IMG/VR virus record: IMGVR_UViG_2690316267_000001
Source of the DNA: a virus
Lineage: Monodnaviria > Loebvirae > Hofneiviricota > Faserviricetes > Tubulavirales > Inoviridae
DNA: 8,586 bases
Reading direction: 5' to 3' (one strand)
Shown: in pieces, positions 3,586 to 4,828 of the stretch
Numbering within the stretch: position 1 is the first letter of the stretch
Layout: the number at the start of each line of letters is the position of its first letter
Position numbers and translations under genes: made by a program
Notes under the pieces: model-generated
The model's database searches: none
The model's input: only the letters and a program-made list of their open reading frames with translations
What the model was told of the DNA's origin: nothing

Positions 3586-4828
3586 TACTCACCTCCTTTA
3601 CGAAGTAATGAGGTTAAAGACGTAAATACATACCAGAAGGTAAGGCAATAAAAAATCCATGAAAGCGCATCTTTGATAGTAAGTAATTTATCGCATTCAA
3701 TATCAATCTGATAAATTTCACCGGGGAAAATAACAAGTTCAGAACAACCATTACCATTAGGTAAACTAGGGAGCATAGCACCTTTATTCAGGAATGCTTC
3801 CCATAAAGCACCATGAGAATCTTTAGCTATTCCTAATTCGGATTCAGCCAATGTTGAAGCACTGTCTAATTCGGAATCCCCTTTCCCATAACGAGAATCA
3901 CCGCCAGAAGGATCAGCAAAACGTCCGGCTCCGCGAGTAAGGTTATTTATAGCGTCACCAAGACGATTTATATTATTTTTAGTCTGTTCATCAGCCGATT
4001 TTTTATCATCAGATGAGGTGTCTTTTTCTGTTAACTTATCATGAATCTCACTGGCCATTTTAGGTGAAGCACCTTCAATAGCTGACTGAATATCTCCTTT
4101 GGTAATACTTGAGCCATTACCACCTGAGTTACCGCCACCTGAGTTACCACCGCCTGTATCACCTCCTCCAGTATCACCACCCCCCGTATCCCCGCCTCCA
4201 GTATCCCCACCATCGCCAGCAGGAGAAGAAGGCTTATCTGAAGGATCGGCTACGGTTCCGGTAGGCTTCCATGTCGCCGCACAAACAGTGCCATCACCCT
4301 GGCAAACAATGACGCCAGTGGCCTCATATTCACAACCGTTATAATAAATATAACGATCACCATCATAAGATAGACATTATTAAATACACCTTCTTCAGGA
4401 GGTTTAGCTTCACAAATTTCTTCAGGTGTAGGCTCGGAGGGTTTTTCATCAGGAATAGAACGCTGAATATCACCGATAATATAAGCGGTTAAATTCCAGT
4501 ATTTATCTTTCTGGCCCGGAGAGTCGCTGTAGGTACAAGCGTCAGAAAACACAAGACGGAATTCAGAGTTAGGCCATACTCCCTCATAAGTTGGTTTAAC
4601 CTGAGTAAAAACACCCTGAGCACTGTCTTTAGCCCCCTGACAGGCAGAAGCCTGCATAGCTGCATCAATATAATAAACAGTTTGTTTAGTGCCATCTTGG
4701 TTGGTTATTTGCTTACTTTCAGAATAGGCAGAGCTTTGAAAAGTAGATTTAGTAATGCTTTCCCATGAATCAGCATGTGAAAAAGAAGAAATAAGAATAG
4801 CGGAAATAATTAATATTTTCCTTTTCAT
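3585..4828 (-). pseudogene. gIII: gene III adsorption protein pIII, frame-disrupted: N-terminal frame 4828..4250 (signal peptide MKRKILIISAILISSFSHA plus N-domain), C-terminal frame 4376..3585 (domain with Cys pairs, Gly-rich linker, C-terminal membrane anchor)
   Basis: The two frames overlap at 4250-4376. The C-terminal frame has TAA TAA at 4382-4377, then reads [49 protein letters not shown]..; the N-terminal frame continues as hydrophobic nonsense ([15 protein letters not shown]..) to a stop at 4252-4250. One inserted nucleotide between about 4360 and 4377 would fuse them into a ~414-aa pIII. C-terminal end (..[39 protein letters not shown]) matches the M13 pIII C-domain pattern. Confidence 0.7.
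4111..4216 (-). repeat. in-frame tandem 15-nt repeats encoding the pIII glycine-rich linker ((GGGDT)x4, (GGGNS)x2)
   Basis: Direct inspection: plus strand shows repeated units of the form ACCnCCnCCnGTATC / ACCnCCnGAGTT; translation [35 protein letters not shown]. Confidence 0.75.

Follow-up and report, generated by a model that had tools for sequence, protein, structure and literature searches.

Gene III of the filamentous phage analysed here, its attachment gene, has lost a single T, and this deletion is very probably a real, inherited loss-of-function mutation in a UPφ-type prophage, passed on by vertical descent within one E. coli clone. It has left the prophage, which is itself decaying, with an unremarkable pseudogene that is inherited clonally.

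By ORF listing and similarity searches, the window (the whole stretch of 8,586 nt that was analysed) is a filamentous phage genome with its genes on the minus strand: gene IV (ORF 876-2234), gene I (2149-3243), gene VI (3244..3585; DUF5455, 113 aa), whose start overlaps the gene III stop, gene III itself (3585-4828), which is split into two frames, gene VIII for the major coat protein (4875..5117; 80 aa), upstream of gene III, gene V (5331-5648) and gene II (5660-6712). An HTH regulator (6884-7330) and a 140-aa membrane protein (7429-7851) are encoded on the plus strand, and the window also contains a copy of IS1. Apart from gene III, every phage gene is intact, genes VI and VIII on either side of it included.

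The nearest characterised phages are IKe, I2-2 and Erwinia PEar, with approximately 70% DNA identity across about half of the gene III region. The window phage is a member of the UPφ group described in PMC7307601, whose viruses resemble IKe and I2-2 and are integrated in tandem at dif in E. coli, Salmonella, Klebsiella, Citrobacter and Yersinia. Like UPφ901 and its relatives, it follows the IKe/I2-2 gene order at about 70% DNA identity to those phages, integrates as tandem copies at the host dif site beside hipBA by way of a phage dif-like site, and carries reverse-oriented accessory ORFs adjoining that site. It is nevertheless a distinct lineage, with 83-84% identity over the gene III region to the UPφ prophage of ECONIH2 (in PMC7307601), and it differs from the group in carrying IS1 and, in the window copy, in having neither the attachment site nor one of the accessory genes.

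Three-frame translation of the minus strand from 4828 to 3585 divided gene III between two frames. Frame 0 runs from an ATG at 4828 through a signal peptide, a folded domain and a hydrophobic stretch to a TAG at 4252-4250, specifying a 192-aa product that starts MKRKIL (gene III 5’ part, 4250..4828, minus strand). The second frame holds the double stop TAA TAA at 4382-4377 on the same strand, which sets the upstream limit for any rescue of the frame, and from 4376 it encodes a protein in which a Gly-rich linker leads to a C-terminal domain, with a stop at 3585. This reproduces the original prediction, which had placed the N-terminal part of pIII and its remainder in different frames, with the downstream frame blocked by TAA TAA at 4382-4377 and the upstream frame ending in hydrophobic sequence before a stop at 4250.

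The 192-aa product, named ‘Uncharacterised protein [Escherichia coli]’ in public records, is made up of the signal peptide, the entire pilus-binding domain (residues 22-125) and the TolA-binding domain up to its 24th residue, followed by a hydrophobic out-of-frame tail of 39 aa (Kyte-Doolittle mean of 2.49 over 19 residues). The 3’ part (3585..4376, minus strand) is no longer translated from the gene’s own start and encodes what remains of the TolA-binding domain, then the Gly-rich linker with its GGDTGGGD repeats and lastly a C-terminal assembly/anchor domain with a membrane helix; the first start codon in its frame is an ATG at 4058, which opens a 157-aa ORF lacking a signal peptide. In phmmer searches, residues 20-128 matched the pilus-binding domain of IKe G3P (PDB 4EO0, E 1e-27) and residues 130-195 its TolA-binding domain (PDB 4EO1, E 1e-25), while residues 22-125 matched PF21443 over the full length of the profile (E 1.9e-25) and the C-terminal part aligned with the C domain of f1 pIII (8B3O) up to residue 411. 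Since both halves match solved G3P domains, this is a real disrupted gene, and a chance pattern of ORFs is ruled out. Neither fragment of the window scored by itself against the TolA-binding profile PF05357, the domain being cut after its 24th residue, and the profile was detected only in an intact relative or after repair of the frame. Likewise, the window contains no single gene III ORF of about 410-430 aa, its ORFs being of 192 aa and 157 aa as compared with 414 aa in the intact gene. Once repaired, the protein presents a signal peptide, a pilus-binding domain, a TolA-binding domain, a Gly-rich linker and a C domain, in the same order as the G3P of IKe and I2-2 (4EO0, 4EO1), to which it is related but not identical (E 1e-27 and 1e-25), and from which it differs in being interrupted inside the TolA-binding domain.

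A near-identical prophage (99.97%) in E. coli SCPM-O-B-12142 (NZ_CP144928.1) has an intact gene III, annotated as 1245 nt and encoding 414 aa, and defines the lesion exactly. The two are 99.9% identical over the gene III region, with 1402 bases in NZ_CP144928.1 versus 1401 in the window, and base-by-base alignment across these 1401 nt gave a single difference, one T that is missing in the window (intact GTCTATTCTTAT versus GTCTA-TCTTAT). The deletion, TT to T on the coding strand, falls between 4371 and 4370 (minus strand) and thus within the interval of 4360-4377 in which an indel had been predicted. The intact codons GTC TAT TCT TAT GAT (V Y S Y D) are read in the window as GTC TAT CTT ATG ATG, such that the break comes after Tyr153 and codon 154 is the first to be altered, 24 residues into the 66 of the TolA-binding domain. 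Putting the T back gave a protein of 414 aa with matching domains, in line with the earlier claim that one added nucleotide restores a pIII of about 414 aa with the expected domains. Across the 7819 nt that the window and the NZ_CP144928.1 phage have in common, the only differences are this gap and one substitution, at window 4945, where codon 58 of the major coat protein encodes Ala in the window and Val in NZ_CP144928.1. The relative in APEC E19057, which is 91% identical, also has TAT TCT TAT at the site of the lesion, and the alignment to IKe G3P passes through it uninterrupted.

Two adjacent frames encoding parts of one protein could also reflect programmed recoding, in which slippage during transcription, or a ribosomal frameshift of -1, would change the frame between 4376 and 4250 and yield full-length pIII at a set ratio. 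The shift needed is indeed -1, the usual direction, and the upstream frame meets no stop for 125 nt beyond the break. However, the only stretch in which a change of frame is able to rescue the protein, 4376 to 4250, contains neither an X XXY YYZ heptamer in the frame required nor any homopolymer of at least 4 nt, of A/T or otherwise, in agreement with the earlier reading that no slippery heptamer or long homopolymer sits at the junction. A shift further downstream would moreover put nonsense in place of part of the conserved TolA-binding domain. Nor is the two-frame arrangement conserved, the protein being encoded in one frame in the near-identical phage of NZ_CP144928.1 and in the more distant APEC E19057 relative and IKe G3P. 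With neither heptamer nor homopolymer at hand, and with relatives that use a single frame, programmed frameshifting or slippage is very unlikely indeed.

The original prediction had also allowed for a sequencing error, in which case the real DNA would carry the extra T and gene III would be intact. Single-base indels are the commonest type of assembly error, and only this base and one substitution separate the window from the intact copy; yet the site is a TT pair rather than a homopolymer, and the same allele recurs widely. The exact 192-aa product, with all 39 out-of-frame residues, was present in 108 index blocks of a public assembly collection, and an exact look-up located it on 82 contigs originating from NCBI, ENA and Logan; in the same look-up, the identical intact 414-aa protein was found correctly assembled on 38 other contigs. 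We read the truncated product in GCA_977064715.1, in GCA_001285805.1 and in the Logan assemblies SRR28801437, SRR29270441 and SRR11658261, and a pattern scan of IMG/VR added two contigs, of which one has the deletion and the other the intact allele. In total, the frameshift was read in six separate sources, namely two NCBI genomes, assemblies of three SRA runs and a contig from IMG/VR. The frameshifted copies align to the window without gaps, and the three Logan copies (L006, L007 and L008) have two private substitutions each. Since independent assemblies share exactly this truncated product, and some of their copies have SNPs of their own, we reject the explanation by error, which is now left with next to no probability.

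The private SNPs in these three copies indicate separate isolates that diverged later than the deletion. The six substitutions lie at window 3003 and 2535 (both in gene I), 5054 (gene VIII), 3887 (gene III, in the C-terminal frame), 6369 (gene II) and 1157 (gene IV), and all of them (6/6) are nonsynonymous, which hints at relaxed selection on the prophage as a whole, six SNPs being a very small sample. The chromosomal flanks, 5.8 kb in length, are identical across all carriers examined, and they are 100% identical to E. coli chromosomes; as the source records likewise give E. coli, a Shigella host, which the presence of IS1 had suggested, was discarded. The flanks are consistent with a single clone but are weak evidence for one, as they are common to many unrelated E. 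coli.

The place of the phage in the chromosome could be read from several genomes. In NZ_CP144928.1, APEC E19057 and GCA_977064715.1, it lies just downstream of hipBA. The right end of the prophage is marked by the canonical 28-bp dif, GGTGCGCATAATGTATATTATGTTAAAT, which begins 8 nt past the base equivalent to window 105, and a hybrid site, GGTGCGCATAATGTACGACTCGTTATGT, occurs at the left end as well as between tandem units. GCA_977064715.1 has two tandem copies of the frameshifted, IS1-bearing phage at dif beside hipBA. In this genome IS1 is a simple insertion between the 369-aa gene and the 140-aa gene, flanked by an 8-bp duplication, CAATTTTT, and the element is present in both copies (L003 6139-6906 and 15992-16759) with the same duplication and together with the gene III frameshift, implying that the unit was duplicated after both events. 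Duplication subsequent to the mutations raises the question of whether a phage devoid of pIII is still replicating and re-integrating.

In the window, IS1 is divided between the two ends. A segment of 664 nt (7923..8586, minus strand), from the insB end to part of insA, continues at window 1-104, where the other 104 nt (minus strand), with the left inverted repeat and the start of insA, adjoin the phage end at 105; the 104 and 664 nt add up to 768 nt, exactly one IS1 with its InsA and InsB ORFs, such that the window formally closes as a circle. Both ends match the IS1 termini, exactly over 118 nt on the left and at 43 of 45 nt on the right. The phage sequence breaks off at 105, directly against the left end of IS1 and 8 nt before the dif-like attachment site of other copies, and the window lacks the 1259 nt that comprise this site and the 369-aa gene. 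No target-site duplication surrounds the window IS1, and a loss of this kind with no duplication is the signature of an IS1-adjacent deletion or of recombination between IS1 elements.

Over its whole length the window matches, at 100% identity, the first 8586 nt of contig CYBP01000067.1 (GCA_001285805.1), in which a complete IS1 connects the phage to the chromosomal genes cybB, gapC, aldA, ydcF and hrpA, a join taken from a short-read assembly and not fully reliable. The prophage IS1 is in this contig (L005 1-6138) joined to cybB and not to the hipBA side, which implies either that IS1 brought about a deletion or rearrangement in the terminus region or that the assembly is mis-joined across IS1. 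The rearranged stretch would presumably measure roughly 100 kb, going by distances on the K-12 map.

These arrangements bear on the earlier proposal that the defective phage persists as an episome, which finds no support in the chromosomal tandem copies at dif, the chromosomal join in CYBP01000067.1 and the loss of the attachment site. A chromosomal repeat of the form IS1-phage-IS1 explains the circle-like window without an episome, and a circle arising from recombination between two IS1 copies is possible. Among the plasmids of PLSDB we found no close copy of the phage, the best match being 83%. A true episome, whose circle would close only via IS1 and which would have lost its attachment site, is unsupported, though not outright rejected.

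The consequences for the phage can be projected from f1, in which the absence of pIII lowers infectivity about a million-fold, termination of assembly and release of the virion need a C-terminal pIII fragment of more than 83 residues, and a fragment of 93 residues suffices for termination (PMC10175506). The TT to T deletion after codon Tyr153 has very probably inactivated gene III: translation from the normal start now yields only the signal peptide, the pilus-binding domain, a TolA-binding stub and 39 residues of hydrophobic nonsense, and neither a full TolA-binding domain nor the linker nor the C domain is produced any more. With these three parts out of frame, the phage should be pIII-defective and fail by itself to infect or to end and release its virions properly, an expectation carried over from the Ff phages, whose C domain is only distantly similar. 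To this extent the frameshift supports the prediction of a phage defective for pIII.

The closest experimental parallel is provided by Ff gene III mutants (f1d3 and C-domain truncations), which likewise lose the pIII C domain and for which phage that is non-infectious, unterminated and unreleased would, by analogy, be the shared outcome; unlike the window allele, which is natural and resides in an integrated prophage, these are laboratory constructs in phages that do not integrate. An early stop in gene III of a UPφ prophage is, moreover, already on record, in GCA_001519645, and the authors considered that prophage viable only if a co-resident Ypfφ provides the protein (PMC7307601). A phage lacking pIII would probably survive as a passenger of the chromosome. 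That IS1 has inserted, that in this copy the attachment site has been lost in connection with it and that the later SNPs are all nonsynonymous fits a prophage in decay.

The survival and duplication of the mutant unit could also be read as signs of a helper-dependent element, in which the pIII-less phage replicates and spreads with pIII taken from Ypfφ/CUSφ or from another UPφ. All of its remaining genes are intact, the frameshifted, IS1-bearing unit stands in two identical tandem copies that were duplicated post-mutation, and Shapiro and Putonti proposed the same for the UPφ gene III early stop that co-occurs with Ypfφ (PMC7307601). However, chromosomal flanks are identical in all carriers examined and nothing indicates horizontal spread, XerCD or homologous exchange would also produce tandem copies with no need for particles, and the window copy has no attachment site, rendering such a way of life improbable.

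Alternatively, the split itself may have been put to use, with the pilus-binding domain held in the inner membrane by its new tail, or the 157-aa ORF made, or both, such that the fragments block superinfection or pilus function or still terminate assembly, which would explain the persistence and tandem duplication of the allele. A tail of such strong hydrophobicity might insert into the membrane, the 157-aa ORF exceeds the 93 residues of the sufficient f1 fragment and is preceded by GAAGGTG 11 nt upstream of ATG 4058, and the allele occurs on 82 contigs and is carried by both tandem copies in one genome. The 157-aa ORF nonetheless has a highly charged N-terminus and no signal peptide, the frame is T-rich and would specify a hydrophobic tail in any case, and a neutral lesion in a vertically inherited prophage is expected to persist anyway; the later SNPs, 6/6 nonsynonymous and one of them within the C-terminal ORF, argue against selection. 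We found no evidence of function for either the 192-aa or the 157-aa fragment, and consider such a use highly improbable. A phage that still replicates from its tandem array and moves between cells as a pIII-borrowing satellite, or a membrane-tethered pilus-binding fragment that benefits the host and so accounts for both the 82 contigs and the duplication, is very unlikely.

Under the preferred reading of a clonally inherited pseudogene, the ORFs of 192 aa and 157 aa, each an ‘Uncharacterised protein’ in public records, are to be annotated as the two parts of a single disrupted attachment gene, which deserves the label of a pseudogene and not a ‘correction’ as though it were an error. The allele marks an E. 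coli clone whose UPφ prophage can probably no longer spread unaided. It also offers a small natural example of how a dif-integrated filamentous prophage decays, by a frameshift and an IS1 insertion and then by loss of the attachment site, and the break in gene III opens no long-standing question.

Further irregularities in gene III were observed on single Logan contigs. One contig from another UPφ strain (P0010) has a separate 1-nt deletion about 20 nt upstream of the lesion described here (…EAKPP|KKVYSIMSIL…), leading into the same hydrophobic out-of-frame tail, and may represent either an error or a second, independent knockout. No conclusion as to a mutational hot spot at the lesion is drawn from this one contig, the protein cluster being biased towards products of this shape. 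Two other contigs (P0035 and P0036; approximately window 4060-4240) have variant ORFs that start inside or just after the repeat region, which suggests additional changes of length or frame in the Gly-rich linker, or else trouble in assembling the repeats.
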